Source: an uncultured bacterium (GTDB taxonomy: Bacteria > Bacteroidota > Ignavibacteria > OLB7). Taken from it: 64,000 nt of DNA. The notes under the pieces are model-generated. The model saw nothing but the letters and a program-made list of their open reading frames with translations. It was not told where the DNA came from and made no database searches. Location of the stretch: NCBI GenBank assembly GCA_966128725.1, contig CBHYLN010000003.1, forward strand, positions 17,177-81,176, in the 5' to 3' direction. Position 1 is the first letter of the stretch. Every line of letters begins with the position of its first letter. The position numbers and the translations under genes were made by a program. Shown piece after piece: positions 1 to 25,211 of the stretch.

Positions 1-419
1 AGGACATCGAAGGAATGCGGTTTAACACCGCGATTTCGGCACTGATGGTGTTCGTCAACGAGTTCATCAACGTGCCGGAGAAGCCACGCGCGGCAATGGA
101 AGCCTTTACGCTGCTGCTCTCCCCGTTCGCGCCGCACATGGCCGAGGAACTGTGGCTGCGTCTGGGACACGAGGCCACCATCGCCTACCAGGCATGGCCC
201 GCGTTCGATCCGGCGAAGGTTGCCGAGGACGAAGTGGAGATCGTGGTGCAAATCAACAGCAAAAACCGGGCAAAGCTGCGCGTTGCGGCCGGAATGGATG
301 CGGCGGGGCTGGAGCAGACGGCGCTGCAGAACGACGTGGTGCGCGAGCTGATCACCGGGAAGACTGTCCGCAAGGTGGTCGCCGTGGTGGACAGGCTTGT
401 GAATGTTATCGCCAACTGA
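1..419 (+). CDS. leuS: Leucine--tRNA ligase, C-terminal fragment (5' end lies outside the window).
   Basis: C-terminal anticodon-binding region typical of LeuRS (…EIVVQINSKNRAKLRV…). The ORF is open to the window edge. Stop TGA at 417-419. Confidence 0.85.
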   Translation, partial: DIEGMRFNTAISALMVFVNEFINVPEKPRAAMEAFTLLLSPFAPHMAEELWLRLGHEATIAYQAWPAFDPAKVAEDEVEIVVQINSKNRAKLRVAAGMDAAGLEQTALQNDVVRELITGKTVRKVVAVVDRLVNVIAN

Positions 420-526
420 GTGAATCTTTTGGGGGATTCGTTCGATAAGGAAGAAGTGCATCCGCCCTCGGGCTGTGCCGCTGTACGAATGCGCTGTTCC
501 GTTCACCTATTACTGTGCCCTCGCGT

Positions 527-1576
527 ATGGATGAGTCAACATCGATCCGATCAATCAAGGTCAAGTTTCCGAACATCAGCTCCAAGTCGTGGGAACATCC
601 GGCCGACCGGGCAACCCTCACTGGCCTGAAGAAGGTACCGGGACTCGACACCGTTCTGCAGAAGTTCGTTGGCGTTACCACCGAGCGTTCGATTCGGTTG
701 ATCACGCTTGCTTCGGCAGTGCGTGTATCCACCAATCAATTTCCCAAGCTCAACAGGCTCCATCGCGAGGCGTGCGACCTCTTCGACCTGAAGGAGATCC
801 CGGAACTCTATGTCTCACAGAGCCCGTTCCTGAACGCCGGCGCCGTGGGCGTTGAGAAACCCTTCATCGTGCTCAACTCGTCCATTGTGGACGGCATGAG
901 CGAGGAAGAGATACTCTACATCCTTGGCCACGAGATCGGCCATTGCATGAGCGGGCATGTGCTGTACAAGACGTTGCTGCAACTGTTGCTGCAGTTCTCC
1001 ACCGCGGCGCTGGCACTGCCGCTTACCGGCGTTTCGCTGCTGGCGATCATCCTGGCTTTGAAGGAGTGGGACCGCAAGAGCGAGCTCAGCGCCGACCGTG
1101 CCGGCCTGCTCGCCGTACAGGATCCGCATGTGTGTTATCGCGCGTTGATGAAGCTGGCCGGCGGCTCGCACACGTCGGAGATGGACATCAACGAATTCTT
1201 CGTGCAGGCGGCCGAATACGAACGTGGCGGCAGCATTGTCGACAGCGTGCACAAGCTTCTCAACCTGGTAAAGCAAAGCCATCCGTTCCCGGTGCTTCGC
1301 CTTACCGAGCTCAAGACATGGGTGGATTCCGGCTCGTACGACAAGATCCTCGGCGGCGACTACATCCGCCGTGACGAAAACGGCCGCGACGACGTGGGCA
1401 GCGCGTTCCGCGAGGCCGCCGACCAGTACAAGGACGACTTCAACAGCTCGAAGGACCCGCTGGCCGAGACGCTTCGTGGGGCAATGGAGGCAGCCGATTC
1501 GGTGCGCGCCAAGGCCAAGGAAGCGTTCAACTCGTTCTTCAACAACACGAACAACGGTTCCACCGAATCCAACTGA
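527..1576 (+). CDS. M48-family Zn metallopeptidase (HtpX/Ste24-like).
   Basis: HEIGH zinc-binding motif (LGHEIGHCMSGH) followed by hydrophobic segments. First ATG in frame at 527; the ORF-track start at 515 is GTG. Confidence 0.8.
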   Translation: MDESTSIRSIKVKFPNISSKSWEHPADRATLTGLKKVPGLDTVLQKFVGVTTERSIRLITLASAVRVSTNQFPKLNRLHREACDLFDLKEIPELYVSQSPFLNAGAVGVEKPFIVLNSSIVDGMSEEEILYILGHEIGHCMSGHVLYKTLLQLLLQFSTAALALPLTGVSLLAIILALKEWDRKSELSADRAGLLAVQDPHVCYRALMKLAGGSHTSEMDINEFFVQAAEYERGGSIVDSVHKLLNLVKQSHPFPVLRLTELKTWVDSGSYDKILGGDYIRRDENGRDDVGSAFREAADQYKDDFNSSKDPLAETLRGAMEAADSVRAKAKEAFNSFFNNTNNGSTESN

Positions 1577-1715
1577 TGGCCGAACCCGCCCCGGATTTCT
1601 CCGGGCCGCGGGCGCCAACCTGCAAGGGGGATCAAATCGGATCGCACGGCATCCCGGCTCACCAGATGAGCCCCGCCCTGCATTCAGTTTGGTTCCCCTT
1701 CACTATTTTCGCGCC

Positions 1716-2873
1716 ATGGCATCCAACCTCCGCTCGCATTTCCTTCTTCGTCCCGACGTCGCATTTCTCAATCACGGTTCATTTGGTGCGTGCCCCCGCC
1801 CTGTGTTCGATGCCTATCAGGCATGGCAACTGGAGCTGGAGCGCGAGCCGGTGGATTTCTTCGTGCGGCGGGCGCCGGCTTTGCTGCGCGAAGCACGCAT
1901 TTCGCTGGCCACCTACATCAACTGCAATCCGGACGATGTGGTCTATGTTCCGAACGCAACGTTCGGCGTCAACATCGTGGCCCGTTCGTTGAAGCTTGGG
2001 GCCGGCGACGAAGTTCTGGGCACCGACCACGAATACGGCGCATGCAATCGCACGTGGCGTTTCCTGGCGGCACAACGTGGATTCGCCTATCGAATGGCGG
2101 CCATTCCCTACCCGGCCACCACACCGGAGAACTTCGTGGAGCAGTTGTTCTCGCAGGTATCGCCCGCAACGCGCGTCATCTTCCTGAGCCACATCACCGC
2201 GCCAACGGCACTCATCCTTCCTGTTGCGGAGGTATGCCGCCGCGCACGCGAGATGGGGATCATGACAATTGTGGATGGCGCGCACGCACCGGGCCAGATA
2301 CCTGTGGACATCGAGGCGATCGGCGCGGACTTTTATACCGGCAACCTGCACAAGTGGCTTTGCGCGCCCAAGGGAGCGGCGTTCCTGCACGCTCGCCGTG
2401 AGTGCCAATCCCTGTTGGATCCACTGATCGTCAGTTGGGGCTGGGAGGCCGCGGTGCCCGGCGCTTCGCCGTTCATCGATCACCAGGAAATGTGGGGCAC
2501 GCGAGATATCAGCGCCACACTGGCAGTACCGGCGGCAATCCAATTTCAGCAGGAGTACAACTGGGACGCCGTACGCGCCGGCTGCCGGGAAATGCTGATG
2601 CAGGCCCGGCCGTTGATTGCCGCGGCGGTTGATGCCGAGCCATGCGCCCCGGACTCCGGCGACTGGTTCATGCAGATGAGCGCGTTCAAGCTTCCGCCCA
2701 CCATCAATGGCCCGGAGCTGCACACGCGTCTGTTCCAGGAACACAGTGTGGAAATCCCGGTGTTCCCGTGGGACGCGCAAACGTTCATGCTGAGGATTTC
2801 AGTACAGGGTTACAACACCTGGGACGATATCCAGCGCCTGCTGGAAGGGCTGAACACGATCATGGGCCGCTGA
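1716..2873 (+). CDS. Aminotransferase class V-fold PLP-dependent enzyme (isopenicillin-N epimerase / cysteine desulfurase-like).
   Basis: Strong family motifs: FLNHGSFGACPRPV, ITAPTALILP, IVDGAHAPGQIP and NLHKW (PLP lysine). The first 115 codons of ORF 1371..2873 are low-complexity Arg/Thr-rich read-through and are excluded. ATG at 1716. Confidence 0.8.
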   Translation: MASNLRSHFLLRPDVAFLNHGSFGACPRPVFDAYQAWQLELEREPVDFFVRRAPALLREARISLATYINCNPDDVVYVPNATFGVNIVARSLKLGAGDEVLGTDHEYGACNRTWRFLAAQRGFAYRMAAIPYPATTPENFVEQLFSQVSPATRVIFLSHITAPTALILPVAEVCRRAREMGIMTIVDGAHAPGQIPVDIEAIGADFYTGNLHKWLCAPKGAAFLHARRECQSLLDPLIVSWGWEAAVPGASPFIDHQEMWGTRDISATLAVPAAIQFQQEYNWDAVRAGCREMLMQARPLIAAAVDAEPCAPDSGDWFMQMSAFKLPPTINGPELHTRLFQEHSVEIPVFPWDAQTFMLRISVQGYNTWDDIQRLLEGLNTIMGR

Positions 2874-2945
2874 CGGCCCATCCTGCTTCATCGTCAGGCC
2901 ATTGCGCTGGCCACATGCATCACGCATTACTCGCCGCGCAAGGCA

Positions 2946-2974
2946 TTGACTGTGGCCGGCACCGATGCTACATT
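2946..2974 (+). promoter_or_regulatory. Sigma70-like promoter candidate (TTGACT-17 nt-TACATT).
   Basis: Near-consensus -35 (TTGACT, 2946-2951) and -10 (TACATT, 2969-2974) with a 17-nt spacer. It lies in a lower-GC 527-nt gap, about 110 nt upstream of the palindromic hairpin at 3083-3109. Confidence 0.35.
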
Positions 2975-3082
2975 AGCACCGCTGGCACGTATGTGTATCC
3001 CACCACTCTATCCCCATGGGCAGCAAGCACACTACCGAATGTTCGCGTATCGGCTTCATGGTAATGCCCGCCTCGCCAGTTG

Positions 3083-3109
3083 AAAAAGTACCCATGAGGG
3101 TACTTTCTT
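3083..3109. terminator. Palindromic hairpin AAAAAGTACCC-ATGA-GGGTACTTTCTT (bidirectional terminator-like).
   Basis: Perfect 9-bp inverted repeat (AAAGTACCC / GGGTACTTT) with a 4-nt loop. An A-run precedes it and a T-rich tract follows. A near-identical element occurs at 24656-24682. Confidence 0.4.
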
Positions 3110-3400
3110 GATAGTACATGAAAATGTGAAGTTACGGACCCTACGTTTCAAGGGAGCGTAACTCCCACAGCGCCATCGCTCATAGTCCTGACGATTTGCG
3201 GAGCGCCTCAGCCTCTCTCCAATGAAGTTCATCGAAGCACCCGTTCGCGGTGAAGGCAGTTTTGGGAGGTCATGTATTCGGTCATTGAAGCGCTATGGTT
3301 ATGTGCTTGCACTACCGACCCCCAAGGCAGTTATCCGCGACCAGTAATTCTCTTTGATCGGCGTTGATTACACGCCGGCTTCTGATAACGCACAGTTTCC

Positions 3401-4237
3401 ATGCCGCGTCAACATAAGATCGATTCTGCTGGAGGGGAGGAGTCACGGCAGCGAAGCCAACGACACTACGCGCCACCAACGGCAACAACAATACCCCCTG
3501 CGATTCTCGGCACGCTGTTCCAATTCCTCGGCAGGATACCAGCCACAGGCGACGTCATCGAATGGATCCATTCATTCGGCGAACTACTTTGCGCAGAGTT
3601 TCCGGACGTTGATCTGGTCTCGGTGCGCGTGAATCTGCATTGCCGGTTGGCGAACCTGGCATCCGAGTATCTTACACTCGACCACACCCCTCCCATCGAT
3701 CTGCTGACACAGTCGCTGGGCGGGCATACCAGCCAGTTACTGCATACCCCGCTGGTGGTGGAGGCCCCAACATTCCAGCCCGAGGCATTTCACGAACCAC
3801 GCGTGATCTCGTACGTCTATGCCGGCGACAGCCTGGGCTCGATCATGCTTCTGCGCAACAAGCGCGAAGCGCCCATCAGCGAGGCCACACTGGCGGCGTT
3901 CGAGGCACTGGAGCCCTTCCTCGTGTTCGCGCTGACCGATCTTGTCGCCCGCTACAACTACGCAAAACCGATCAGCCGGGTATTTCGCGATGTGCTTCGC
4001 GCCATCGGCGAAACCGCACGGCTTACCAGTCGCGAGCTGGAGGTGCTTACGCTGCACATGTTCGGCCGCAAGTACGACGAGATTGCCCGGCGGCTCTACA
4101 TCTCCATCGACACCGTTAAAAAGCACGTGAAGAAGATCCATCGCAAAACCGGAGCTCGCAGCGCCACCGAGCTGTTCGCGCGCTACTTCTCGCCGCTTAT
4201 CGACACCGATCCACCCGACCCCGGCCCGGAGGATTAG
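3401..4237 (+). CDS. LuxR-family transcriptional regulator (N-terminal sensory domain plus C-terminal LuxR HTH).
   Basis: C-terminal HTH: LTSRELEVLTLHMFGRKYDEIARRLYISIDTVKKHVKKIHRKTGARSATEL. Start is uncertain: ATG 3401 is the only canonical in-frame start, and GGAGGGGAGGAG lies just downstream of it. Confidence 0.7.
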   Translation: MPRQHKIDSAGGEESRQRSQRHYAPPTATTIPPAILGTLFQFLGRIPATGDVIEWIHSFGELLCAEFPDVDLVSVRVNLHCRLANLASEYLTLDHTPPIDLLTQSLGGHTSQLLHTPLVVEAPTFQPEAFHEPRVISYVYAGDSLGSIMLLRNKREAPISEATLAAFEALEPFLVFALTDLVARYNYAKPISRVFRDVLRAIGETARLTSRELEVLTLHMFGRKYDEIARRLYISIDTVKKHVKKIHRKTGARSATELFARYFSPLIDTDPPDPGPED

Positions 4238-4298
4238 GCACGCCAACAATGTGGCCACACCCCGCCTCAACGTGGGGGCGCATCCGTAAACGCAAAAC

Positions 4299-4327
4299 GG
4301 GGCGATGGTGTATCTCACCATCGCCCC
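4299..4327 (-). terminator. Rho-independent terminator for the desaturase gene.
   Basis: Perfect 12-bp stem GGGGCGATGGTG / CACCATCGCCCC with loop TATCT. On the minus strand it is followed by TTTTGCGTTTAC. Confidence 0.55.
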
Positions 4328-4374
4328 GCCGCGTATTCAGCATCAACCGTCGCCAGCCGTACTTGCGCCCTTCG

Positions 4375-5250
4375 CTACCGTGGCGACGCCTTCGCGGCGC
4401 GCAATCGCGCAAGCCGCATGGATTTGGTACGGAAGGCAGGAACGATCGGCGCCAGCAGATACACCCGGATGATGTACCACCAGAAGCTTCGTTCGTTCAA
4501 CGAGGGATCGATCAGATGATGCACCTTGGCATGCGCTTCCGGCAGAAGGCTCCAGTGAACACCGGCACGCTGATGATGCACCGTGTGATAGCCGTTGTTG
4601 AACAGCATCTTGTTCAGGAAGCCCAGGAAGTTGCGCGAGTGGTTCCACTCCGACTCCTCCTCGGCATGCACATGTTGAACGTAGTTGAACACGAGCACCG
4701 AGAACAGCCCGAACTGCTGCGGGATGATGATGTACAGCAGGGCCTTTTCCCAGTCAATGAGAAGGGCGCCGCCAACAAACGCGAACAGGGCAACGTACTG
4801 GAACACGGCCAGATAGAACTCGCGCCGATTGGTGCGCCACAGCCCCTTCAGGTAATCACGGATCGGCCGCTGCTGGAAATAGCTGCTGATGGTGGGGTAG
4901 ATGAGCAGTGTGAACAGGTTGTTCTTCTCGCTGACACGGTACGTTATGGTATAGTCACCCGCGCGATTGTTCAGCGCGTGATGGTTCTTGTTGTGGGTCG
5001 GGATCCATGCAAACGCCGGAAACCCATAGAACAGCGTCAGCCAGTAATCGGTGAGCGTGTTCAGTGTCTTCGATCTCCAGATCGGGAGATGATTATGATT
5101 GTGCGCGATCACCGCCACTGTTACGGCCATGTACATGCCGAGAGCGAACAGAAACGGATTCATCGCTGGAAGCGACCATTGCACCACAAGCAACGCGGTA
5201 GTTACCGCCATGTATGCGAGTGTGCGAATATCAGCATTGTACCTGAGCAT
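4375..5250 (-). CDS. Membrane fatty-acid desaturase family protein (possibly a lipid or carotenoid-modifying di-iron enzyme).
   Basis: Three histidine boxes (HNHNH, HNKNHH, HTVHH) and multiple TM helices. Start chosen at MLRYN (ATG 5250). The longer ORF to 5403 adds an Arg/Ser-rich non-protein-like extension. Confidence 0.75.
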   Translation of the reverse strand: MLRYNADIRTLAYMAVTTALLVVQWSLPAMNPFLFALGMYMAVTVAVIAHNHNHLPIWRSKTLNTLTDYWLTLFYGFPAFAWIPTHNKNHHALNNRAGDYTITYRVSEKNNLFTLLIYPTISSYFQQRPIRDYLKGLWRTNRREFYLAVFQYVALFAFVGGALLIDWEKALLYIIIPQQFGLFSVLVFNYVQHVHAEEESEWNHSRNFLGFLNKMLFNNGYHTVHHQRAGVHWSLLPEAHAKVHHLIDPSLNERSFWWYIIRVYLLAPIVPAFRTKSMRLARLRAAKASPR

Positions 5251-5627
5251 AGAAGATCTTCCGGGGAGTACCGTCGGCGTGCGGAGCAATCTTGAAACGC
5301 GCCGAGAAAGGAATGATTTGTAACGGGAGTAAGATAGCGAACGGATGCCCCTGCGACCATGATATTTCGCAAGCAATCCAACGGCATATCCGTGGCTACA
5401 CACGTTTGGCGGGCGGAAACCAGGCGCCCCGCGCGGCAGCGCAGCACGCCATCAACGGCTTGCATGCCTGCGTCGCGCTCGGTATTATCGGCCCACTAGC
5501 CGCCCCTGCACGGGCGTTGATGCATGCATGCCAGGGTAACGGCCCGCGACCGCCGATGGCAACGGCTCCTTGCGCATGCGCGGTTGGCCGCTCAGCCACA
5601 TTCACACACAGCCAGGACACGGACATC

Positions 5628-5957
5628 ATGGCCTACGATGAATCGGTAGCCGCACGGCTCCGCATCCACTTCGCCGATCGCGACGACGTTGTTGAGAAGA
5701 AGATGTTCGGCGGCATCGCGTTCATGGTACGCGGGCACATGTGTGTTGGTGTTGTCCGCGACGAGCTTATGGCTCGCGTAGGCCCCGATCAACACGCCGC
5801 GGCCATAACGCGACCAAACGCACGCCCGATGGATTTCACCGGCCGCCCGATGAAGGGATTCATATACGTCGCGCCGCAGGGATTTGCCACGGCAAGCGCG
5901 TTGAGCGATTGGGTGCGGCTCTGCGAGGCATTTGTTTCCACGCTCCCACCCAAATAG
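5628..5957 (+). CDS. TfoX/Sxy N-terminal domain protein.
   Basis: …KKMFGGIAFMVRGHMCVGV… matches the TfoX_N fold. ATG at 5628 preceded by AGGACACGG. The upstream part of ORF 5292.. is a low-complexity read-through. Confidence 0.6.
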   Translation: MAYDESVAARLRIHFADRDDVVEKKMFGGIAFMVRGHMCVGVVRDELMARVGPDQHAAAITRPNARPMDFTGRPMKGFIYVAPQGFATASALSDWVRLCEAFVSTLPPK

Positions 5958-5960
5958 CCG

Positions 5961-6455
5961 ATGCCAATGAACAACCAGAACGAAGCACACTACCAGATGC
6001 TGCGGCATACGCTGGCGACCGTGGCATATCGAGCCCGCAAAGCCCTGCACGATGCGCCCGATGGATTCAGCACCTTCCGCGCCCGGGAAGACTCCCGAAG
6101 CGGGGGCGAGATCCTTTCGCATATGTGCGATCTGTACGACTGGGCCATTCGGCTGGCCACAAACGAAAACATCTGGACCACATCGAGCGTTGGCGATTGG
6201 GATGGTGATGCCGAACGATTCTTTCAGTCGCTGGGACGGCTTGATGCATACCTGGCGCAGGGCAACCAGCTTCTGTGCCCGGCGGAACGCCTGTTCCAGG
6301 GTCCGATCGCCGACAGCCTGACGCACATTGGCCAGATCGCGATGCTCCGCCGATTGGCCGAGTCGCCCGTTCGCGGCGAGAACTACTTCAAGGCCACGAT
6401 CACGACCGGGACAACCGGGACGGACCAAGCGCCGCCCGTGTTCGAGTTCGATTGA
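5961..6455 (+). CDS. DinB/YfiT-like (DinB_2) family protein.
   Basis: Conserved His-containing segments (EILSHMCDLYDW, SLTHIGQIAMLRR) resemble the DinB-family four-helix bundle. Assignment is by recall only. Confidence 0.5.
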   Translation: MPMNNQNEAHYQMLRHTLATVAYRARKALHDAPDGFSTFRAREDSRSGGEILSHMCDLYDWAIRLATNENIWTTSSVGDWDGDAERFFQSLGRLDAYLAQGNQLLCPAERLFQGPIADSLTHIGQIAMLRRLAESPVRGENYFKATITTGTTGTDQAPPVFEFD

Positions 6456-6491
6456 GTTCGGCTCGTGCGCCCGCGATCCCCGGATCACGCA

Positions 6492-7133
6492 TCACGGAAC
6501 AACATCGCCGATCTCCCCGCCAAGGCGTTGGCACAACGCGCGATACCATGCCTCGGCCGCGGCAAGCTCTTCCTGAAAGCCCTGCACCCCCCATATCACC
6601 GACAGCGTGCGAACCGTGGCCGCCGCCGTTTTGGTGCGCTGCGAATCCTTCACCGCGTTGGCGCACGGGCCGTCGGCATCAAACAGGCACAGCAGGCCGG
6701 CTACATCGATCTCCTGAGCGGATGCGTTGAACACGTACCGCTGGCCCTGCCCGGCCAGGCCAATTCGCAGCGGTTGCCGGGCGCGGTCCAGATCCACAAG
6801 GCTGATCGGAAATCCGCTGGCCAGCGAGACCACATTGCACGCATCCACCGCCGCATTGATCGAACCCAGCTTCGCTTCCTCGGCCGCGCGCACCAGATAC
6901 TCCGAAGCCGGCTTGCCGCGCCCGGTGGGCTTATACCCCCCATGCCGCAGCATCTCGCGTACAGCCGAGCGCACTTCCTCGGTTCGGCGAACGGGCACGT
7001 CGGCATCAACGCGCAGAAGATCCGTAAGCCAATCAGGCGATGGATTCTCGGCCAGCGGCCGTGGGAACGTGGTTGTAAAGGCGCGCGCATCCAGCAATGG
7101 ATGCTGATCAACGTGCAGATTCATCGCAGGCAT
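6492..7133 (-). CDS. B3/B4 tRNA-binding domain protein.
   Basis: …LRHGGYKPTGRGKPASEYL…INAAVDACNVVSLASGFPISLVDLD… matches the B3_4 domain (as in PheT). Start taken at MPAMNLH (ATG 7133); an alternative ATG lies at 7124. Confidence 0.6.
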   Translation of the reverse strand: MPAMNLHVDQHPLLDARAFTTTFPRPLAENPSPDWLTDLLRVDADVPVRRTEEVRSAVREMLRHGGYKPTGRGKPASEYLVRAAEEAKLGSINAAVDACNVVSLASGFPISLVDLDRARQPLRIGLAGQGQRYVFNASAQEIDVAGLLCLFDADGPCANAVKDSQRTKTAAATVRTLSVIWGVQGFQEELAAAEAWYRALCQRLGGEIGDVVP

Positions 7134-7266
7134 CAACGGTATGGTGTACGGCTCCGGGATTGAACGAAGGAACCGACAATATAGCCAGCATGCAATCTCA
7201 TCGGATCGCGTTTCGCGCGGCCACCGATGCCGTTCTGTGTATTTTGGCGTTCCTCCCTCTTCCCTA

Positions 7267-7279
7267 TCTCTCTCTCTCT
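7267..7279 (+). repeat. (TC)6.5 dinucleotide microsatellite inside a 30-nt polypyrimidine tract, immediately 5' of mutS.
   Basis: tctctctctctct at 7267-7279 ends 11 nt before the mutS ATG (7291). The surrounding tract ttcctccctcttccctatctctctctctct runs 7249-7279. Confidence 0.9.
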
Positions 7280-7290
7280 GAAGCGAAGGC

Positions 7291-9972
7291 ATGGCCAAGC
7301 AGCGCACGCCGCTCATGCGGCAGTATCATCAGATCAAGGAACGGTACCCCGATACGATACTTCTGTTCCGTCTCGGCGACTTCTACGAAACGTTCGAGGA
7401 GGATGCCGGGATCACCGCGCGTGTATGCGGCATTACGCTGACCAAGCGAGGCAATGGTGCCGAGGAGGAAACACCGCTTGCAGGCTTCCCCTACCACCAG
7501 CTCGACAACTACATCCCCAAGCTGGTGCGGGCGGGATATCGTGTCGCCGTCTGCGAGCAGTTGGAGGACCCCAAGCTGGCGCGCGGCATCGTGCGGCGGG
7601 ATGTCATCGAAGTGGTGACCCCTGGCGTGGCCATGAGCGAGAAGCTGCTGGATGCCGGCAGGAACAATTACCTCGCGGCGGTCGATATCGCCAAAGGCGT
7701 GGCCGGCATCGCGTTCTGCGACATCTCCACCGGAGAATTCCAGGCGCTGGAGCTTTCGCTGGATGAACTGGACGAGGTGCTGGAAACGATCGGCCCGGCC
7801 GAGATCATCATCAACCGGGCACAGAAGGATCTGTTCGCTGCCCGCCGCATCAGCTCCGAGCCCCGGATAACGAAGCTGGAGGAATGGATCTTCGATGCCG
7901 AGTTCGCCAACGAACGGTTGCGCGAGCACTTCGGAACGCAGTCGTTGAAGGGCTTCGGGCTGGAACAGGAGGAACGCGCCGTAGTGGCCGCCGGCGCGAT
8001 CATGCATTATCTGATGGAAACCCAGCGCGCACGCCTGGGCCACATTCGCAAGATCACCCGCTACGCCCACGGCGATTACATCGCGCTGGACCCCGCAACC
8101 AAGCGGAATCTGGAAATCATCTTCTCGGCCAACGACGGTGGCCGCCACGGCTCGCTGATCGGCGTGATCGATCGGACCTCCACACCGATGGGCGGGCGCC
8201 TGTTGAAGCGATGGCTTGTGCATCCGCTGAAATCCCGAACGGCCATCGAGAAGCGCCTGTCGGCGGTGGATGCGCTGGTGACATCGGCGTCGATAGCCGC
8301 CGAGCTTGAAAAGGAGCTGCGCGCGACAAGCGATCTGGAACGCATCATCGCCCGCGTGGCAACCGCACGCGCAACCCCGCGCGATCTGGGTTCGGTGCGT
8401 GATACCCTGGCGCGGATCCCGCGCGTTGCCGATCTGCTGGCACGCTCGGATAACGCCACGCTTGGCGCACTTGGCGAGGCAATGGCCGCGCTTGATGACC
8501 TTGTGGCCCATCTGGAAGCCGCGCTCCCGGACGAACCGCCCGCAACGCTGGCCGATGGCGGGGCGCTGCGCTCCGGCTTTTCGCCGGAGCTGGACGAACT
8601 GCGCGACCTGCGCGCTTCCGGCAAAAGCTTCCTGGAGAGTCTTCAGGAGCGCGAACGAACACGCACCGGCATCAGCTCGCTGAAGGTTGGCTTCAACAAC
8701 GTATTCGGCTACTACATCGAGATCACCAACGCCAATCGCGATCGCACGCCGGATGACTACATCCGCAAGCAGACGCTGGCCAACGCCGAACGCTACATCA
8801 CGCCGGAACTGAAGGAGTACGAGGAGAAGATCCTGCACGCCGAGGAAAAGCTGTCGGCGTTGGAGCGCGAGCTATTCGGCGAGCTGCAGGCGTTCACGGC
8901 CGAACGGAGCGAGCCGATCCTGCGCAACGCGCAACTGCTTGCCATGCTGGATTGCTTCGTGGGGTTTGCCCGCCTGGCACGCGAGCGCGATTACCGCCGG
9001 CCCGACATCGAGGATTCCACGCGGCTGGAGATTGTTGGCGGCCGCCATCCGGTTGTTGAAACGCTGCTACCCCCCGGCGAGCGATATGTGCCGAACGGCA
9101 CGTCGCTCAACGCCGAGGATCGGCAGATCGCGATCATCACCGGCCCGAACATGGCCGGCAAGTCGTCCTATCTGCGCCAGGTTGGCCTGATCGTGCTGCT
9201 GGCACAGATAGGCTCGTTCGTGCCGGCGGAGTCGGCGGTGATCGGCGTGGTGGATAAGATCTTCACACGGGTTGGGGCGCAGGACAACATCGCCGCCGGC
9301 GAGAGCACGTTCCTGGTGGAGATGCACGAAGCAGCCAACATCCTCAACAACGCAACGCCAGCCAGCCTGATCCTGCTGGACGAGGTTGGGCGCGGGACAT
9401 CCACGTTCGACGGTATCTCCATCGCGTGGTCGATGACCGAATACATTCACGATCGGCTTGGCGCCCGCACGTTGTTCGCCACGCACTACCACGAACTGAA
9501 CGCGCTGGCCGACCGCTTCGAGCGGATCCAGAACTACAAGGTGGAGGTTCGCGAGCACGACGACCGCGTGATCTTCCTTCGAACCGTTACCCCGGGCACG
9601 GCCGATCACTCCTACGGCATCCATGTGGCCCAGATGGCCGGCCTGCCCGAGGCGGTTACCGCCCGCGCTCGCGAGATCATGGCGCAACTGGAAAGCGCTT
9701 CCGAAGGCAACCCGATAGGCGGAACCGAGGAGGCCCTTGCACACGCGGCCGCGCAACACGGCGGCGCCCGCAGGATGGCCGCGCACGAGATTGCGCAGCG
9801 AACCACCAACGAGCAGCGCGCCGCCACGCCGCAGATCTCCATGTTCGAGATCGCCGCCGATCCGGCGCTTGAAGAGCTTCGCACGCGATTGATGGGATTG
9901 AACCTGAACGCGATGACACCCGTGGAAGCACTGGTGGAGCTGGATCGCCTGCGCCGCATGCTGACCCCGTAA
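7291..9972 (+). CDS. mutS: DNA mismatch repair protein MutS.
   Basis: Full-length MutS, 893 aa: mismatch-binding N-terminus (MRQYHQIKERYPDTILLFRLGDFYETF), Walker A (GPNMAGKSSY) and a C-terminal HTH. Confidence 0.95.
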   Translation: MAKQRTPLMRQYHQIKERYPDTILLFRLGDFYETFEEDAGITARVCGITLTKRGNGAEEETPLAGFPYHQLDNYIPKLVRAGYRVAVCEQLEDPKLARGIVRRDVIEVVTPGVAMSEKLLDAGRNNYLAAVDIAKGVAGIAFCDISTGEFQALELSLDELDEVLETIGPAEIIINRAQKDLFAARRISSEPRITKLEEWIFDAEFANERLREHFGTQSLKGFGLEQEERAVVAAGAIMHYLMETQRARLGHIRKITRYAHGDYIALDPATKRNLEIIFSANDGGRHGSLIGVIDRTSTPMGGRLLKRWLVHPLKSRTAIEKRLSAVDALVTSASIAAELEKELRATSDLERIIARVATARATPRDLGSVRDTLARIPRVADLLARSDNATLGALGEAMAALDDLVAHLEAALPDEPPATLADGGALRSGFSPELDELRDLRASGKSFLESLQERERTRTGISSLKVGFNNVFGYYIEITNANRDRTPDDYIRKQTLANAERYITPELKEYEEKILHAEEKLSALERELFGELQAFTAERSEPILRNAQLLAMLDCFVGFARLARERDYRRPDIEDSTRLEIVGGRHPVVETLLPPGERYVPNGTSLNAEDRQIAIITGPNMAGKSSYLRQVGLIVLLAQIGSFVPAESAVIGVVDKIFTRVGAQDNIAAGESTFLVEMHEAANILNNATPASLILLDEVGRGTSTFDGISIAWSMTEYIHDRLGARTLFATHYHELNALADRFERIQNYKVEVREHDDRVIFLRTVTPGTADHSYGIHVAQMAGLPEAVTARAREIMAQLESASEGNPIGGTEEALAHAAAQHGGARRMAAHEIAQRTTNEQRAATPQISMFEIAADPALEELRTRLMGLNLNAMTPVEALVELDRLRRMLTP

Positions 9973-10017
9973 GCGATCATCGCGTAGCAGGAGTGCTCAG
10001 GCGCCGGCCACACTGCG

Positions 10018-10065
10018 GGCACGGCAACCGCATCCACACTGCGGGCATGCGATCGTTGCCGTGCC
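10018..10065 (+). other. Long imperfect hairpin with an internal 14-nt direct repeat, downstream of mutS.
   Basis: GGCACGGCAAC…GTTGCCGTGCC is an 11-bp stem. CCACACTGCGGGCA occurs twice (10008-10021, 10034-10047). No T-run follows, so terminator function is uncertain. Confidence 0.35.
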
Positions 10066-10469
10066 GCAATTACCCACCCTGCATCATTGCGGGGGTGGGG
10101 CCAGGCATGCTCCACACACCCACATCACCGTCCATTTGTAACGATGACGTAACCAAACATTTACGGTATTTCGTCGCGAGTTGCCTTTCCTGTTCCCTTC
10201 AGAGTTTGTAGAATAGCATCATACGCGCTGAACGTGTCGAGCAGACGTTATTCATCCCCCGCGCGTGAGTGTGTCCAGCACTCGGTCCCATGTCCCCCGT
10301 CACGTGTTCCTCCGACGGGGTTTCGACACACGACACATCAACAAAATCGACAACCCACTGCTGCCGGCCGCAGTGTCGCGCCGTGTATTGCCATGCATTG
10401 CACGTTGGCAGAGCAAGCTTTGCTCTGTCTTGAATCTCTTCATCCCAAACAATTCAGGAGAAATCGTCC

Positions 10470-13400
10470 ATGCGACGAATTTACGTTCCGCTTCTGGCGG
10501 TGCTCGGCGCGCTGTTGTTTACAGCGCTGCCTACGTATGCAAACCTTGCCGATTACGGCTTCTCGGTGGGGCAAGGTGGTTGGTTGAAATCGGAAACCAC
10601 AACAATCCTCAAAGCCGGCAGCAACGACGATGCCTCGGCTGTGAACGATATAGGATTCACGTTCTATTTCGACGGGCAGCCGTACACTCAGTTCTCCGTC
10701 AGCTCGAACGGCCTGATCGGCCTTGGTTCGCAGCAGGTTACGCCATGTTGGCTGAACCAGCTCACCACACCGAGCGGCGAGTGCGACGGCACCGGCGGGT
10801 ATGACTTCACGCTGGCGAATGTGCCGCACATCGCGCCGTTCTGGGACGATCTCCGCATCCCCGACAGCCGCAACGACGGCTTCGACAGCGACATCTCCTA
10901 CGGCCTGATCGGCGAAGCGCCGAACCGGATCCTGGTAATCAACTTCCGCGACATCGAGACCGATTACTTCAATTTCAACTACAGCAGTTTCCAGGTTCGC
11001 CTGTACGAGACATCGAACACAATCGAGTTCTTCTACAGCTATCTGAACCCGAGCTATTCCGGCAACGGTGCCTCGATTGGCCTGGCGATCAGCGATCGCA
11101 ACTACCTGAGCGTGTCGCCCGCCTTCGAAGGCGCGTATGTTAACGGCCAGGAGGTCAACGACTCGTATTACCCATCCGAGCCCTCGATCCCCGAGGGAAC
11201 GATGTACACCTTCCGCCCGTGCCAGATTACCTTCACCGGCAACGTTGACGAAGGCGGCACCAGCAGCATGGCCAACGGTGACGTGTTATTGGTTGGCAAG
11301 CAGGCGATGGTGTATTCGTACGCATCGTACATACCGTTTTCGATGACGATGGACGGCGCGTGCAGCTCGCGCGTGGTTACCGCATCGATTGTTGGGCCCG
11401 ACGCTTCGGATTATTCCTTCTCGCCGGAGAACTTCACCCTGTATGCCGGCAACGAACCCACGCAGGCATATGTTGGGTTCCACCCCACCGGCATCGGCGT
11501 GCGCCACGCCACGCTGGAACTGGTTGACGATCACGGCACCACGTATTCGTTCGAGCTTGCGGCCGAGGGCCTGCCGCGAATCATCTATATCGGCGATGTG
11601 AATCAGGGTGGTACCGACGGCATGGCCAGCGGCGACGTCCTGATGACCAACGTGCATGTGCATCGCAACGAAAGCGGCACGTTCACACCGTTCGCACTGC
11701 AGAACATCTCCGAGGAAAAGGAATCACAGGCTGCGGCCGTTTCCTACTGGATCAAGGGCATCAGCGGTGGCCAGTACTCCATCGATCCGCCGAACACGTC
11801 GATCGGCAGCGGCGACAGCCACACGCCCACGATCACATTTGCCCCAACCACCGTTGGCCCGGTGCTTGACTCGCTGTTTGTTACCGCCGACGGCCAGACC
11901 CGTGCGTTTGCGCTGCTGGCCACCGGCGACGGGGTCGGCGCCGAGTTCATCGCCGGCAACGAGAAGCTGCATGATTCATCGACCCTGTTCGTGAACTCGT
12001 ACAGCTGCTCGGGTTCCGGACCGATCACGATCGCCGTTCGCGTGCGCAACATTGGCAATCAGCCGATGAACATCACCGGCGCGGACTTCTACATCACCGA
12101 CTCGGTGTACCAGCAGGGCTCGCCACGGTACCCGCTGCTGTGGGGTAACCAGGAATCACCGGAACGCTCCAACGACTATATCATCACCGAGCATCCCCCG
12201 GTATTGCCGATCACCGGCGCGCAGGCCTCGTTCCCGATCACCGTGGAAACCGGCACAACCAAGGTGATCTACTTTACCTTCATCAGCCAGCAGCCGGGCA
12301 AGCGTTTCGCGCGCGCGTTCGTGCATACCGATGCGGAGAACTTCAGCTCGCATGGGATGTACGGGCAAAGCATCGAAGGCTTGCTGACGCTGGATCTGTT
12401 CGGTCGTGGCATTGGCGGAAACCTTTCGGACAACGCGGCGGGCGGTGTGCCCAAGAGCATCCTTATGCCGGCAACCAAGGTTGGCCAGTCGACCGATGCA
12501 ACCGTGAATCTCTTCAACGTTGGCACGTGCGACCTTCGCATCGCGATGAACTCCTTCCGATTCACCGCGGACGATGCCGATGAGTACACGGTTACATCAC
12601 TGCCCCTTGGCACGCTTGACCCAGCCACGAACGATCTGGTGCTGGCCCCGGGCCAGAGCACGTCGTTCCAGGTTCGGTTCACGCCGTCGCAGCTTGGCTC
12701 GCGCCGCGCCACAATGCACCTGCAGACCAACGATTCGTCGTACATCATCCCGGGCATCACCGAGCGCGGTGGCTACTACCTGGATTTCTACGGCAACGTC
12801 GGCAACGGCATCATGGTTAACGGCATCAATTTCGGCACCGTGCTGGCAACAGGCAGCAGTGTGGGCACGCTCGACGCCACGGCCGCGATTGTCAACGTGA
12901 CGAACGCACCGGTAACCATCACCAAGCTGGAGATCACCGGCGCCGACGCGGCCAGCTTTACGCCGGGCACGGGTGGCGCATGGACCACACCGCTGGTAAT
13001 CGCCCCGAACACGGTACACACCCTGCCGGTGCACTTCGCGCCGACATCGAACACCACCGGCCTGCGTACCGCGGAACTGGTGGCAACAACCGACGACGGC
13101 AACGTGATCAACGGCACGCTGAGCGGCATGGTGGGCACGCGCACGCTTACCGCAAGCGCAACGGATCTGAGCTTCGCGGTGGGTGTTGGGCGCACGCAGC
13201 GCCGCTCGGTAACGATCGCCAATAACGGCACGCTTCCGGTTCAGATCACGTCGGTGACGGTGGAAGGGACCGACAAGGGCAGCTACACGGTGCTTCCGCT
13301 GGAGCGCACCACGCTGATCCCAGGCCAAAGCGAGTTGGTGGAGCTTGCCTTCCGCCCAACGGCAACGGGTGCGACAACCGCCACGCTGGTGATAACAAGC

Positions 13401-18169: not shown

Positions 18170-21100
18170 TTACTTCACCACTGTCATGCTGCGGGTTTCA
18201 ACCAGCGTGCCGGCACGCAGCGTGTAGTAGTAGGTGCCGCTTGGCAGATTGTTGGTGTCGAAGAACACGGCATGTTCGCCGGCGCCAAGACGCTCATTAT
18301 CCATCAGGCGGGTTACCACTCGACCGCTTGCATCGGTCACCACCAGGCTTACCGACTCCTGCGACATTGGCAGGCTGAAGCCGATCGTTGCCGAGTGCGT
18401 GGCCGGGTTCGGGAAGCTCTGCCCGAGCATCGCGGTTGCGCCGGTGGCGCCATCATCGCCGCGAACCGAGGAGAGCGGGTTTGCCAGGGTGATCTCACCG
18501 TTTGTGAGAACCTGACCATCGGCGTCGTACGTGGTGAATCCAAGCGTCACCGTGTTGGCTTCCACGCCGGCCATCGTGATGTAGATCGGTCCGTGCTCCT
18601 CGCCCGGTGCCAGCGAAACCGCTGCATCGCCGATCTCCTCGCCCACGAAGCGTGTCTGCCCGTTGCGGCCCAGCTTCACGATCACCTGCTTGTCGCCCGC
18701 GGTAGGTCCTACGCCGATGATGCGCGCGCCGCTCTGGGTACCGGGCTCGCTGATCCCGAAGGCAGCCACCGGCAGGCCCGACGTGTTGGCATTGCGCAAG
18801 TGAATTGCGTAGGTCCGAACATTCGTCAGGTTGGTGTTGGCACCCGTCACCACATCACCGCCCAGCTCGTTTGCACGGCGGAACGTCACAAGCGCTTCCT
18901 CGCTCAGCGTGTCCGGCATACCCGTCTCCGGATTGGTTACCGTGTAGGTGAGCACCAGGCGGTGCCGCGCCGTACGGCGGCTTCCAAGGCCGTTGTACTT
19001 CAGGGCAAACGTCACGCTGCTGTTCGGCTGCGCATCAAACGCTGCCAGCATCTCGCCGTTGGCGAAGAAGAGATCGTAGCCCGCAACCGATGCCGAGCCG
19101 TCCTCGATGGTAAGACCCGAGTCAGCAGGTGTCATCGTCAGGCCGATGTAGTGCACCGTGCCCAGCTCCTGCGGCGGCACCGGGAAGTTGATCGCCAGGT
19201 AGGCACTGTCGGGGCCAACCAATGCTCCGGAAAGCGTTGGGCCATCGGCGCTCTGCAGGGTCTGCTCACCCTGGCGCTTGCTGGTACCAGGCGTCCAGAT
19301 GTTGACATCGTCCCACTTGATCAGGCGGAAGCGCAGACGCGAGAAGCAGAGCACGGTGTCACACGTCACGCAGTTCTTATCAGTGAAACGGAAGCGGATG
19401 CAGTAGCGAAGAACATCGAACCAACGGTTCGGAGCCATCGGCTGGAACTGGAGGTTCAGGTTGAACGGAACACCCATCCAGTTCACGGGCACCATCGGGC
19501 CCCACGTGATATCCTGCGGAACCGGATACCCTGGCGCCGGCGGAACCGTGCCCGGCATACCGTTGATGGTACCGCTGGTGAAGCTGCCCCATGCGGGCGC
19601 GCCGTTTACCGTCACGCTGACAAGTGTTGCCGAGGCCGCGCCAATCGGCGTTGCGCCGCTTCCGGCCGCCCAGAGGATGCCGCCAACATTGCCGGCGCCA
19701 TTGGCCGAGGCCGAGTTATGAAGCTGAGCGAATCGCTTCAGGAAATCCTTGCAGCAATCGATCGGCTTCGGGCAATCGGGAAGCTTGATCTGGAACGAAT
19801 CGCGGCAGCAATGCACGCGCTGCTTGTCGCAGATGGAGGCGTAGAGCGTGTATCCGCCGGGCACCGCGCCAGGACCACTGATGACCACGCATTGCATCGG
19901 CGACATCGTACCAGGAGCCACACCGCTTGGATACACGATCGTCATCGGCGAGAACGACATTCCCGGCGGAGGCACAATCGTGAAGTAATACACCGGGAAG
20001 CTGGACTGGTTAAGGAAGTTGAAGCACCACGAGTAGGCCGGCTGTCCGTTCGTCAGTGAGATGCACTTGACAAAGTTCTCCTTGATCTGGAAGCATCCGG
20101 TTGGGCACTCCGGCAGGCGCACCTTGATGGTGTCGGTGCAGCAACGCTGCTCACCCGTTGGCAGCACACAGCACGTACGCACGGCAATCGAGACAACCGT
20201 GCCTGGCACCGCGGCCGGGCCGGAGATCGAGAACACCACCTGCTGGTACGTGTTCGCAACGAGCGTAAACGTGCCGGGCGTAACCGTCACACCAACCGGC
20301 AACACGCTGACAACCGTGGCCGTCTGTGTCTGGCAGCCGGCAAGATGGCTGCGCAGCCACGTGGTCCACTGATATCCCATCTGGTTGCTGCCGGGGATCG
20401 GCTTGCACTCGATGTGGCTATCCTGCGACATGTCGATGCAGGTATCCTTCTGGCAGTTGCCGAAATCACGACCGGAAACGATCTGCCCGGCGGTCATCGC
20501 CACCGTATAGGTGAGGCTTGCAGGGTACGTCTGGGTCCATCCCGGCTGGTTGACTTCGTTCACGATGTACGAGCCAACAGGAACGTTGAAGAAGTAGTAG
20601 TTGCCGAGAACGTCGGTCACGGTGGTCCATCCGTTGGAAAGCTGAATCGTCCAGCCGGCCAATCCCGGCTCGTTGGCGTCCTTCTTTCCGTCGCAGTTGA
20701 GATCACGGAACTTCTGGCCGGTGATCACGCCGGTGGAATCGCAGCAGTTGGGCTTCACCAGACCAACACCGGGAGCGGTTACGTAACCGGCGATATCGAG
20801 GCCCATCGCAACGCTGCCGATGTTGTGCAGACGCACGCGGATGCAGTTGCGGCCGGGCTTGAAGAATTGCGGGTTGTTGGTGGCCAGGTGCGTTGGAACG
20901 GTAAAGCCACCCGTTGTTGAACCGATATAGTTACCGTTGAGGAACACGGCCGCGCTGTCGTCGGCAAGGATGTCGAACGCCATGCTCGGCTTCTGCGCAT
21001 TCGGGCCAAGACAGAAACAGTACTCGAACTCGTACAGGCCGTTCAGGATGTTGGTTGACGATGGATACGAGCTGATCCACTGGCTGTTGGTAAACGGGAA

Positions 21101-21505
21101 CGCCCACGCGGGATGCTTCAGGATCACACCGGCCGGCCGGGGCTCGGTAGTGCCGGGATCGGGATCGCTGATCACGCGCCACCAGGGCGTCATGCCGCCA
21201 ATCGGGAAAACGGTATTCGTGTTGTAGTTGAAGCCCGTGTTGATCTTTACCGTGTCGGTAAGGCAGGGGTCGTTCTGCGCGTGCAGGTTGGCCGAAGGAA
21301 TGGCCAACCCGAGCATCAGAAGAATCAGGGTAATCGCACCAACAACAAAACCCGGCACTCGACGGCCGGCGGTTGCAGTGCAATTGATCGCATCGTTGTA
21401 CCCAACGATGGTGTTGATCGGCTCATTCGCGAGCCGATTGGTAGCGCCAGTTGGCGCGTTGCCGGTCGTTCGCCGGCTCGTTGTTCTGGATGTTGCGGTC
21501 ATCAT
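18170..21505 (-). CDS. Large secreted protein with a T9SS (Por) C-terminal sorting domain.
   Basis: 1111 aa. N-terminal TM/signal region and a C-terminal Por_Secre_tail (…FPNPATHSATIGFSLPMSQESVSLVVTDASGRVVTRL…GTYYYTLRAG…). Confidence 0.8.
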   Translation of the reverse strand: MMTATSRTTSRRTTGNAPTGATNRLANEPINTIVGYNDAINCTATAGRRVPGFVVGAITLILLMLGLAIPSANLHAQNDPCLTDTVKINTGFNYNTNTVFPIGGMTPWWRVISDPDPGTTEPRPAGVILKHPAWAFPFTNSQWISSYPSSTNILNGLYEFEYCFCLGPNAQKPSMAFDILADDSAAVFLNGNYIGSTTGGFTVPTHLATNNPQFFKPGRNCIRVRLHNIGSVAMGLDIAGYVTAPGVGLVKPNCCDSTGVITGQKFRDLNCDGKKDANEPGLAGWTIQLSNGWTTVTDVLGNYYFFNVPVGSYIVNEVNQPGWTQTYPASLTYTVAMTAGQIVSGRDFGNCQKDTCIDMSQDSHIECKPIPGSNQMGYQWTTWLRSHLAGCQTQTATVVSVLPVGVTVTPGTFTLVANTYQQVVFSISGPAAVPGTVVSIAVRTCCVLPTGEQRCCTDTIKVRLPECPTGCFQIKENFVKCISLTNGQPAYSWCFNFLNQSSFPVYYFTIVPPPGMSFSPMTIVYPSGVAPGTMSPMQCVVISGPGAVPGGYTLYASICDKQRVHCCRDSFQIKLPDCPKPIDCCKDFLKRFAQLHNSASANGAGNVGGILWAAGSGATPIGAASATLVSVTVNGAPAWGSFTSGTINGMPGTVPPAPGYPVPQDITWGPMVPVNWMGVPFNLNLQFQPMAPNRWFDVLRYCIRFRFTDKNCVTCDTVLCFSRLRFRLIKWDDVNIWTPGTSKRQGEQTLQSADGPTLSGALVGPDSAYLAINFPVPPQELGTVHYIGLTMTPADSGLTIEDGSASVAGYDLFFANGEMLAAFDAQPNSSVTFALKYNGLGSRRTARHRLVLTYTVTNPETGMPDTLSEEALVTFRRANELGGDVVTGANTNLTNVRTYAIHLRNANTSGLPVAAFGISEPGTQSGARIIGVGPTAGDKQVIVKLGRNGQTRFVGEEIGDAAVSLAPGEEHGPIYITMAGVEANTVTLGFTTYDADGQVLTNGEITLANPLSSVRGDDGATGATAMLGQSFPNPATHSATIGFSLPMSQESVSLVVTDASGRVVTRLMDNERLGAGEHAVFFDTNNLPSGTYYYTLRAGTLVETRSMTVVK

Positions 21506-21695
21506 CTGATTACCTCGTTTGCGTTTGTATGTGTTGAAGGAGTCGATTCGTTTCTGATTTCAAGCTGCATACAGACTAATGCAGCCTCTTAAAGCACGCT
21601 TAAAGCGAATTCCCCATCCGTTTTTTTATTCCCCTCCGGCGCCGCCGTAGCGGACGCCGGAGGGGAGATTGTCCCCGTCACGGATCAAGAGGACG

Positions 21696-21863
21696 CTATG
21701 AGATCAGTGCCTTTACGCCTTTGCGCGCATAGGCCGCCACTACGTGATCGCTGCCTTTGCCGCGGCCGGCAAACGGATAGAAGCCTATCGCCGCCAGGCC
21801 GAAGCAGAACAGACAACCACCAATCAGTCGAAGTATCGAGCGGACATCGTTCAGCGTATTCAT
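21696..21863 (-). CDS. Possible small membrane protein (55 aa).
   Basis: MNTLNDVRSILRLIGGCLFCFGLAAIGFYPFAGRGKG… has one predicted TM helix. It sits in the promoter region of the large T9SS gene. Weak evidence only. Confidence 0.3.
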   Translation of the reverse strand: MNTLNDVRSILRLIGGCLFCFGLAAIGFYPFAGRGKGSDHVVAAYARKGVKALIS

Positions 21864-22083
21864 ATGATCACCCTGTATTGCGCATCGTTCGATCTGTGGA
21901 CATCCTTCCGCCTCCGGGCCGTTCATCACTCGATCATCGAACATGTATACACGCTATCGCGGGCGCTTAAAAGCGTCTTAAAGAGGTCTGGAAAGATTCG
22001 AGATGGTGGTTCCAAACAACCATGCCGGCGAAGACGGCTGGGGTTGGGAATGCTGAATCTGACTCAAAAAACGCGGATTCACT

Positions 22084-22124
22084 AAAAAAGAAGCCCCGCT
22101 CGGACACATGTGCCGTGCGGGACT
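22084..22124 (-). terminator. Rho-independent terminator for metH.
   Basis: On the minus strand: GTCCCGCACGGCACATGTGTCCGAGCGGGGC hairpin followed by TTCTTTTTT, about 80 nt past the metH stop. Confidence 0.55.
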
Positions 22125-22226
22125 TTTCTTTGAAGCGGAAATTCAGTTGTCGGTTGGGGCCAGCCCACGGCAACCGCGGCTATCCACACAGTGCCTGGCC
22201 GGCGTTACCACGCCGCCACGGCTATA

Positions 22227-24563: not shown

Positions 24564-24655
24564 AGGGCACCAAAGTTACGCATCCAATGCGTCACGCACC
24601 GTATCACTTCGCGAACGCCCCGGCAATCCCACCAGGCACCGGCACGGTGGCAATC

Positions 24656-24682
24656 AAAAAGCACCCTTTTGGGTACTTTTTT
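24656..24682. other. Second copy of the AAAAAG(C/T)ACCC-N4-GGGTACTTTTTT palindromic element, in the divergent metH / 24747 intergenic region.
   Basis: aaaaagcacccttttgggtactttttt has 10 of 11 bp complementary arms and a TTTT loop, flanked by an A-run and a T-run. Compare 3083-3109. Confidence 0.35.
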
Positions 24683-24746
24683 GTTTGCCTCAAACGTTGT
24701 CAGTTTGAACAATGAAACGGGCTCCCCCCGGTTTCAACGTATTCGG

Positions 24747-25148: not shown

Positions 25149-25211
25149 TCCGCTGTCTGTCCGCGCGCGGAGCACGATGGATGCCACACCCGGCACACGG
25201 CGTTTACGGAT

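Follow-up and report, generated by a model that had tools for sequence, protein, structure and literature searches.

A palindrome kept beside a LuxR-family regulator gene in Kapabacteria-like Bacteroidota: a candidate operator with the form of a terminator

Is a palindrome that has the form of a transcription terminator, and of which one copy nevertheless lies in a divergent promoter region, a terminator, a binding site for a protein or a small repeated element? The question is raised by two short sequences in a 64,000-nucleotide stretch of DNA (the window) with a G+C content of 61%, whose nearest relatives are uncultured Kapabacteria-like Bacteroidota. Site 1, at 3083-3109, reads AAAAAGTACCC-ATGA-GGGTACTTT and consists of an A-run (3083-3087), a left arm GTACCC (3088-3093), the spacer ATGA (3094-3097), a right arm GGGTAC (3098-3103) and the T-rich flank TTTCTT (3104-3109). 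Site 2, at 24656-24682, reads AAAAAGCACCC-TTTT-GGGTACTTTTTT, with AAAAA at 24656-24660, GCACCC at 24661-24666, the spacer TTTT at 24667-24670, GGGTAC at 24671-24676 and TTTTTT at 24677-24682, and is identical in a 99% identical strain (contig L003). Both were read from the letters of the window, and neither is assigned to a strand; for site 1 the assignment also draws on hairpin folding and conservation. The palindromes span 22-27 bases, with a dyad core, AAAG(T/C)ACCC-N4-GGGTACTTT, of 20-22 bp. When site 2 is read on the minus strand, as AAAAAAGTACCC-AAAA-GGGTGCTTTTT, its single arm mismatch becomes a G.U pair in the minus-strand RNA.

The window was searched with the 18-base consensus AAAGTACCC-N4-GGGTACTTT, allowing up to five mismatches. 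Only site 1, with no mismatch, and site 2, with one, were returned, which bears out an earlier note that had described them as nearly identical elements of A-run, stem, four-nucleotide loop and T-run. Measured against random expectation in the window, the outcome depends on the length of the pattern. By our own estimate a second copy with at most one mismatch to the 18-base consensus has a chance probability of about 5e-5, and the 12-base core GYACCC-N4-GGGTRC alone is not significant (two found against 0.71 expected, with two or more in 21 of 100 shuffled sequences). The two N4 palindromes are real and go beyond chance. The hexamers are not enriched in the window (GTACCC 11 times against 16.4 expected, GGGTAC 10 times against 13.3), and the GTACCC count rules out a signal of the DNA-uptake-sequence kind. 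Site 1 folds into a hairpin of -14.4 kcal/mol on the plus strand and -14.8 kcal/mol on the minus strand, and site 2 into hairpins of -10.3 (plus strand, with a C.A mismatch) and -14.5 kcal/mol (minus strand, with the G.U pair). The hairpins are followed by U-tracts of 3-6 nucleotides that are partly paired with the A-run. Both sites thus have the G+C-rich stem-loop and U-tract of an intrinsic terminator. A consensus terminator scan missed them, as it counted the T-run into the stem, and the total of terminator-like sites that it found in the window equals the shuffled expectation.

Site 1 lies 209 nt past the stop codon of a class-V aminotransferase gene (about 1716-2873, plus strand; Pfam Aminotran_5, start inferred from orthologs of 384-386 amino acids) and upstream of a gene for a LuxR/GerE-family regulator. 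The region 1-4200 of the window is syntenic with a contig of Candidatus Kapaibacterium sp. SMAG_U6034 (L010), with genes of 72-77% nucleotide identity, and altogether eight syntenic loci were compared: the window, L010, L079, L109, L102/L111, L105, L110 and L117, of which L079 is 89-91% identical to L010. As far as each locus reaches, they share the gene order M48 peptidase, a 100-aa gene (minus strand), aminotransferase, element, regulator and RNase T (minus strand). Site 1 is present at all eight. The intergenic region, of 475-600 nt, can be aligned only in one block of about 50 nt and at the start of the regulator gene. This block consists of A(4-5)-G(T/C)ACCC-N4-GGGTAC-TTT, a stretch of 15-16 nt and a second conserved box. 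The arms and the A/T flanks are constant in the orthologs except for one T-to-C change in L109, the same variant as in site 2, while the spacer takes five sequences among them (ATGA, GTGA, CGTA, CTAC and TATT) and is TTTT at site 2. In an alignment of nine instances, none of the ten pairs changes on both sides and six never vary, so the compensated arm changes expected of an intrinsic terminator in distant relatives are not seen. The distance from the dyad centre to the ATG of the regulator is 304.5-321.5 nt at seven loci, against 70-282 nt from the aminotransferase stop codon to the element. Invariant arms, a free spacer, the lack of covariation and unalignable flanks indicate a constraint on the primary sequence and not on structure alone, and the fixed distance on one side against the variable one on the other indicates that the element is tied to the downstream regulator gene.

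The second box, GAAAATGTGAAGTT (box 2; consensus GAAAATG-W-S-AAGTT), is at 3120-3133 on the plus strand, 15-16 nt past the right arm, and is kept in all site-1 orthologs. It is possibly the -10 region of a promoter. An alignment by eye with a one-nucleotide gap suggested that box 2 is common to sites 1 and 2; its ungapped weight-matrix score fell short of significance both at site 2 (p about 0.07) and at a degenerate copy of the dyad in L117 (L117b), and this claim was dropped. Several known signals were compared with box 2 by eye and discarded over mismatched spacing or bases: the sigma-54 promoter (GG-N10-GC), the attC core of integrons (GTTRRRY), and the half-sites of CRP/FNR and Rex. Between the dyad and the regulator gene we looked for a conserved small ORF or peptide, and found similarity at the conserved block only, in all frames. 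A structured leader or small RNA in this spacer of 270-290 nt was rejected too, with folding z-scores from -2.8 to +1.9 that lie near zero without trend on both strands. A short G+C-rich hairpin does stand about 25-55 nt before the regulator ATG (window about 3360-3380; also in L010, L109, L102 and L105), and by eye its sequence differs each time. That is the look expected of a constraint on structure only, unlike the invariant N4 arms. A block TCCGCGGCC near 3333 is weakly conserved, and at two loci a weak promoter-like TnnnTTTG box is found about 52 nt before the regulator ATG.

The regulator gene (3401-4237, plus strand) encodes 278 amino acids. Pfam recognises in it the C-terminal GerE helix-turn-helix only (3.5e-11), with no receiver and no recognisable autoinducer-binding domain. 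Among solved structures, its HTH sequence is closest to VqmA (6ide), followed by VraR, NarL, VpsT, QscR and GerE. In the AlphaFold model (mean pLDDT 74.7) an alpha/beta domain at the N-terminus precedes a four-helix HTH, and the best whole-chain fold matches of the model are the quorum-sensing receptors SdiA, QscR and RhlR, at the low TM-score of 0.2-0.3. At the seven loci compared, the orthologous regulators are 43-57% identical to that of the window. Where the dyad is present, the recognition helix of the orthologs hardly varies and reads ISIDTVKKHVK(K/R)IHRKTG. In a group of paralogs it reads V(S/T)VDGVKHHLKMIHRKTG, and the dyad is lacking at L112, the only locus of that group sampled. A metagenome scan with the regulator protein returned two loci only. 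L117 (1664-4795) has three regulator paralogs in a row: a full-length one with a perfect dyad, a truncated one with a degenerate dyad, and a full-length one with a different recognition helix and no dyad. The degenerate dyad, AAAAGTACCG-AACC-GGGTACTGTT, is located 4 nt past a stop codon and about 25 nt before the truncated paralog.

We propose that the N4 dyad is an operator, recognised through its sequence by a dimer of the LuxR/GerE-family regulator that is encoded about 305 nt downstream of site 1. Site 1 would then be a lux-box-like autoregulatory site, and site 2 another target of the regulator, in front of orf130 or of metH, the genes on either side. Operators of the LuxR/NarL type are placed at about -40 to -45, or about -65, relative to a promoter. 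If SAAGTT of box 2, with TG in front of it, served as a weak -10 hexamer, the dyad centre would fall at about -44.5, as at class II NarL/LuxR sites. We infer both the binding of the regulator to the dyad and this promoter geometry; the geometry is made uncertain by the misfit of box 2 described below, by the proximal box at about 52 nt and by the lack of significance at site 2. As in operators, the dyad measures 18-22 bp and has conserved half-sites and a free spacer. A GerE/LuxR-type regulator gene is linked to it at 8 of 8 syntenic loci, and in L117 the degenerate copy, too, lies beside a paralog; no gene of this type adjoins site 2. That the pair is a shared protein-binding site, as the earlier note suggested, is the best reading of the two copies, given the sequence-constrained arms; the palindrome at lexA, which the note had included, does not belong to it. 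The specific prediction, of a lux-box-like operator of the adjacent regulator with site 2 as second target, seems to us evenly poised between right and wrong.

The dyad resembles lux-box and tra-box sites and the 7-2-7 sites of NarL in its length of 18-22 bp; theirs are bound by a dimer with a GerE-type HTH, as is predicted here. As with lux and tra boxes, the gene of the regulator itself is the neighbour. Its half-sites begin like those of NarL, TACCC corresponding to the start of the heptamer TACYYMT, although the arrangement is TACCC-N4-GGGTA here and has N6 in NarL. The present dyads differ from these sites also in that the arms run into an A-run and a T-run, making the site a terminator-like hairpin as well, in the distance of about 305 nt to the regulator start codon and in host promoters of the Bacteroidetes type; the regulator, for its part, is without a receiver or a recognisable autoinducer-binding Pfam domain. 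In VqmA of Vibrio, the nearest solved HTH by sequence (6ide), a LuxR-type protein with a ligand-binding domain binds a G/C-rich palindrome in the promoter of the transcript just upstream of its own gene. The vqmA-vqmR arrangement differs in that no conserved small RNA is detectable between dyad and regulator gene here. Dimers of the NarL family activate from dyads centred at -43.5 and -44.5, and Lys188, Val189 and Lys192 of the recognition helix contact bases (PMC10853779). Provided that SAAGTT is the -10 hexamer, the dyad here would also lie at -44.5; by eye, the motif TVK-HVK of the helix, with the base-contacting Lys188 and Lys192 of NarL, is shared with the regulator.

Site 2 lies 74 nt upstream of orf130, an orphan ORF of 130 codons (24756-25148, plus strand). 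Among the six frames its own ranks first in codon score, and its protein, judged by eye, runs from a hydrophobic stretch into a charged, helix-like tail. Compared with the 99% identical strain L003, where the ORF has no gene call, six of seven substitutions fall at codon position 3 (seven of eight in metH), a bias for which we calculate a chance of about 0.007 for a pre-specified position. Judged by these substitutions, orf130 is a real gene under purifying selection. A search of 5.8 billion proteins detected no homolog of it, and orthologs are therefore unusable for a test of the regulon. On the other side, a metH-like gene of the truncated type, with B12-binding, GNAT and activation domains by Pfam, runs from 24563 to 22227 on the minus strand; the protein lacks homocysteine- and folate-binding modules, an architecture kept in a family of 65-79% identity. 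The sequence TAACTTTG at 24571-24578 (minus strand), a Bacteroidetes-type -7 promoter box, stands 7 nt before its ATG, and TAACTTTG or TATTTTTG is found 6-8 nt before the ATG in all metH orthologs (L001, L115 and L116), which implies that the metH mRNA is nearly leaderless. Since metH starts at 24563 and orf130 is real, site 2 occupies a divergent region without an upstream gene on either strand, and the placement given in the earlier note stands.

No copy of site 2 is present upstream of the metH orthologs in L001, L115 and L116. In L115 and L116 addA is the direct divergent neighbour of metH, and in L001 a different gene is inserted, in each case with no hairpin; site 2 thus belongs to a lineage-specific insert in the metH-addA interval. 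The content of this insert varies: there is none in L115 and L116, a Por_Secre_tail gene in L001, and in L003 (1-1766) a thioredoxin-like protein of at least 587 aa. Of this protein the window keeps, within 25149-25904, only the last 90 codons (25212-25484, minus strand), and similarity to L003 breaks at about 25490-25562, which could be a rearrangement or an assembly join.

The main alternative is that both copies are bidirectional intrinsic terminators or insulators only, their shared stem being a coincidence or the result of convergence. The hairpin at site 1 would end the aminotransferase transcript and shield the regulator promoter, and that at site 2 would keep antisense or read-through transcripts out of metH and orf130. 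The likeness to bidirectional Rho-independent terminators is close, comprising the A-run, a G+C-rich stem of 6 bp, a tetraloop and the T-run, with a stable hairpin on both strands and three to six U behind it. No other terminator-like hairpin is found between the aminotransferase stop codon and site 1; the element lies only 70-74 nt past that stop codon in L110 and L111, and the degenerate copy in L117 only 4 nt past one. The same genome uses a hairpin flanked by A- and T-runs, AAAGGGGAGCA-TCA-TGCTCCCCTTT (59337-59361), between convergent genes. Other hairpins in the window are a 19-bp stem with TTTTT (47537-47581), 3' of a gene ending at 47499, and a 15-bp stem (4296-4330, minus strand) between the genes for the regulator and the likely RNase T.

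The same sequence is also widespread. A scan of GTDB, with one genome per species, for AAAAAGTACCC-N4-GGGTRCTTT returned 98 stretches of DNA, spread over Firmicutes, cyanobacteria, bacteria of the candidate phyla radiation (CPR), Proteobacteria and others. Here the stem is typically extended on both sides, and some matches adjoin sequence resembling the ends of tRNA genes. In the Firmicutes contigs L009, L019, L046 and L059 the hairpin AAAAAAGTACCC-N4-GGGTACTTTTTT recurs with the same flanks on both sides in several Clostridia, one flank resembling by eye the 3' end of a tRNA gene. In these other bacteria the 24-base sequence is apparently an ordinary bidirectional terminator. Its terminator-like form and setting in many phyla mark it as competent to terminate in its own right, and count against the operator. 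So do further points. An operator for simple autoregulation would be expected closer to the regulator start codon than about 305 nt; the lexA promoters in the same genome have a TTG-N19/20-TAnnTTTG geometry that box 2 lacks; and both T-to-C variants (L109 and site 2) can still form a G.U pair on the minus strand, a change that an RNA hairpin would accept as well.

Several features are left unexplained by termination. The arms are invariant without compensatory change where the flanks cannot be aligned, which structure alone does not account for. Neither does it account for the conserved box 2, nor for a fixed downstream distance alongside an upstream distance that varies four-fold. At site 2, between divergent genes, neither strand has an upstream gene to end. 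Only a handful of strong hairpins exist in the 64 kb, two of them with one and the same stem, and the stems of the other terminator-like hairpins are unrelated to the N4 element. We consider it rather unlikely that the two are terminators and nothing else, and the earlier note's view that they are not coincidental terminators is upheld by arms that stay invariant at eight orthologous loci, with a variable spacer and no covariation.

Operator and terminator are compatible roles. Owing to its A-run and T-run flanks, the transcript of the dyad would fold into a hairpin able to terminate or insulate transcription in either direction, and a terminator function could accompany the sequence-specific site. 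The lack of any other terminator-like hairpin for the aminotransferase gene, together with the A/T flanks, makes a double role plausible. In a stronger form, one 22-bp sequence would have kept two linked roles across Kapabacteria, as the predicted operator of a ligand-sensing regulator of the LuxR type in DNA and as a bidirectional terminator in RNA. Occupancy by the regulator would be coupled to read-through between neighbours, and the element could be copied to new promoters, as at site 2, recruiting orphan genes. We think this extended version improbable.

The evidence from conservation does not itself identify the binding protein, and would serve equally for the operator of a different, unlinked transcription factor that regulates the LuxR-type gene. 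Such a factor would have to coincide with the joint presence of the dyad and this regulator family at all eight loci, and with the paralog in L117, and it offers no place for a recognition helix that is invariant where the dyad is invariant. Local autoregulation is, moreover, the commonest arrangement among LuxR-type regulators. An unlinked factor is quite unlikely.

The element might also be the 3' module of a minus-strand small RNA that has escaped annotation, in which box 2 (AACUUSWCAUUUUC) would form a single-stranded seed, followed by the terminator hairpin and four or five U. The minus strand does provide the better terminator, with 4-5 contiguous U; there the T-to-C variants are accommodated as G.U pairs, and the hairpin of site 2 is more stable than on the plus strand (-14.5 against -10.3 kcal/mol). 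In small RNAs, the seed and terminator are usually the best-conserved part. Against this, the minus strand has neither a conserved promoter nor any other conserved sequence ahead of box 2, site 2 does not share this box, and the spacer of 270-290 nt shows no excess folding energy on either strand. A search of the window against Rfam 15 gave no match at gathering score, as did a tRNA search; in E-value mode around both sites the best scores were 14-21 bits against thresholds of 39-75 bits, weak matches to families that end in a terminator. We regard a small RNA as very unlikely.

The presence of two copies in 64 kb, with site 2 inside the lineage-specific metH-addA insertion, might recall a mobile REP- or MITE-like palindromic repeat, or a chance likeness of two sequences, yet either is hardly credible when site 1 keeps the same orthologous place in all eight genomes, two related GTDB assemblies hold a single strict match each, the window has no degenerate copies and the chance probability is as low as that estimated above. 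The Kapabacteria-like matches of the GTDB scan were L010 and L079 only, in both cases at the regulator locus, and in about 95 kb of DNA from relatives the only N4 dyads are the orthologs of site 1 and the one degenerate copy in L117. In the window and these relatives the element is of low copy number and does not behave as a REP-like family with many copies of variable presence, and the earlier suggestion of a small repeated structural element is not supported. Megablast of 1-12000 and 20000-32000 against a plasmid collection gave no match.

The palindrome near the start of lexA, regarded in the earlier note as related to the two sites, proved to be of a separate class. The lexA gene (34500-35126, minus strand) has the Pfam domains LexA_DNA_bind and Peptidase_S24, and scores 109.4 bits with TIGR00498, for which the cut-off is 110.95. 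The palindrome, ATACCC-N10-GGGTAC at 35126-35147 (no strand; TACCC at 35127-35131, GGGTAC at 35142-35147), does not overlap the start of the gene as had been thought; it abuts the TTG start codon (35126, minus strand). On that strand it stands between the promoter TTGACT-N17-TATGTTTG, with the -10 element TATGTT(TG), and the lexA start. A twin, ATACCC-N10-GGGTGT, is found 233 bp away at 35359-35380 (no strand) in the same radA-lexA intergenic region, where it overlaps the TTG of a second minus-strand promoter, TTG-N20-TATCTTTG (TATCTTTG at 35343), which precedes a 32-codon ORF with its ATG near 35322. These two are the only sites in the window within one mismatch of the N10 pattern. They share the half-site TACCC/GGGTA with the N4 dyads, but the N10 spacing and the lack of A- and T-runs set them apart from the N4 family, as does their overlap with promoter elements. 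Their position, which is that of repressor sites in promoters, suggests that they are probably the LexA operators of this lineage, and we regard the N10 dyads as a candidate LexA box. For LexA and LexA-like proteins, the Bacteroidetes motifs GGA-N5-TCC and CTAA-N5-TTAG and the Balneolaeota motif TTACACATATTTTWTACATA have been published (PMC8565304, PMC7739468), and these match neither the N4 nor the N10 palindromes. The N4 sites do not repeat a dyad and spacing found at SOS genes: the lexA region contains N10 dyads only, and the neighbours of the N4 sites are the aminotransferase and LuxR-type genes, and metH and orf130.

The N4 element is thus most likely of an ordinary kind, a candidate operator of a LuxR-family regulator, and its consequence would be local, concerning one regulator and few targets. 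Comparison of genomes served here to separate a palindrome constrained in its sequence from an ordinary terminator. The N10 dyads, as a candidate LexA box, may be of more general use for work on the SOS regulon in this group. If the operator prediction is true, it would allow the regulon to be traced for a so far uncharacterised regulator of the LuxR type, which has a ligand-binding-like domain and comes from an uncultured lineage of Bacteroidota (Kapabacteria).
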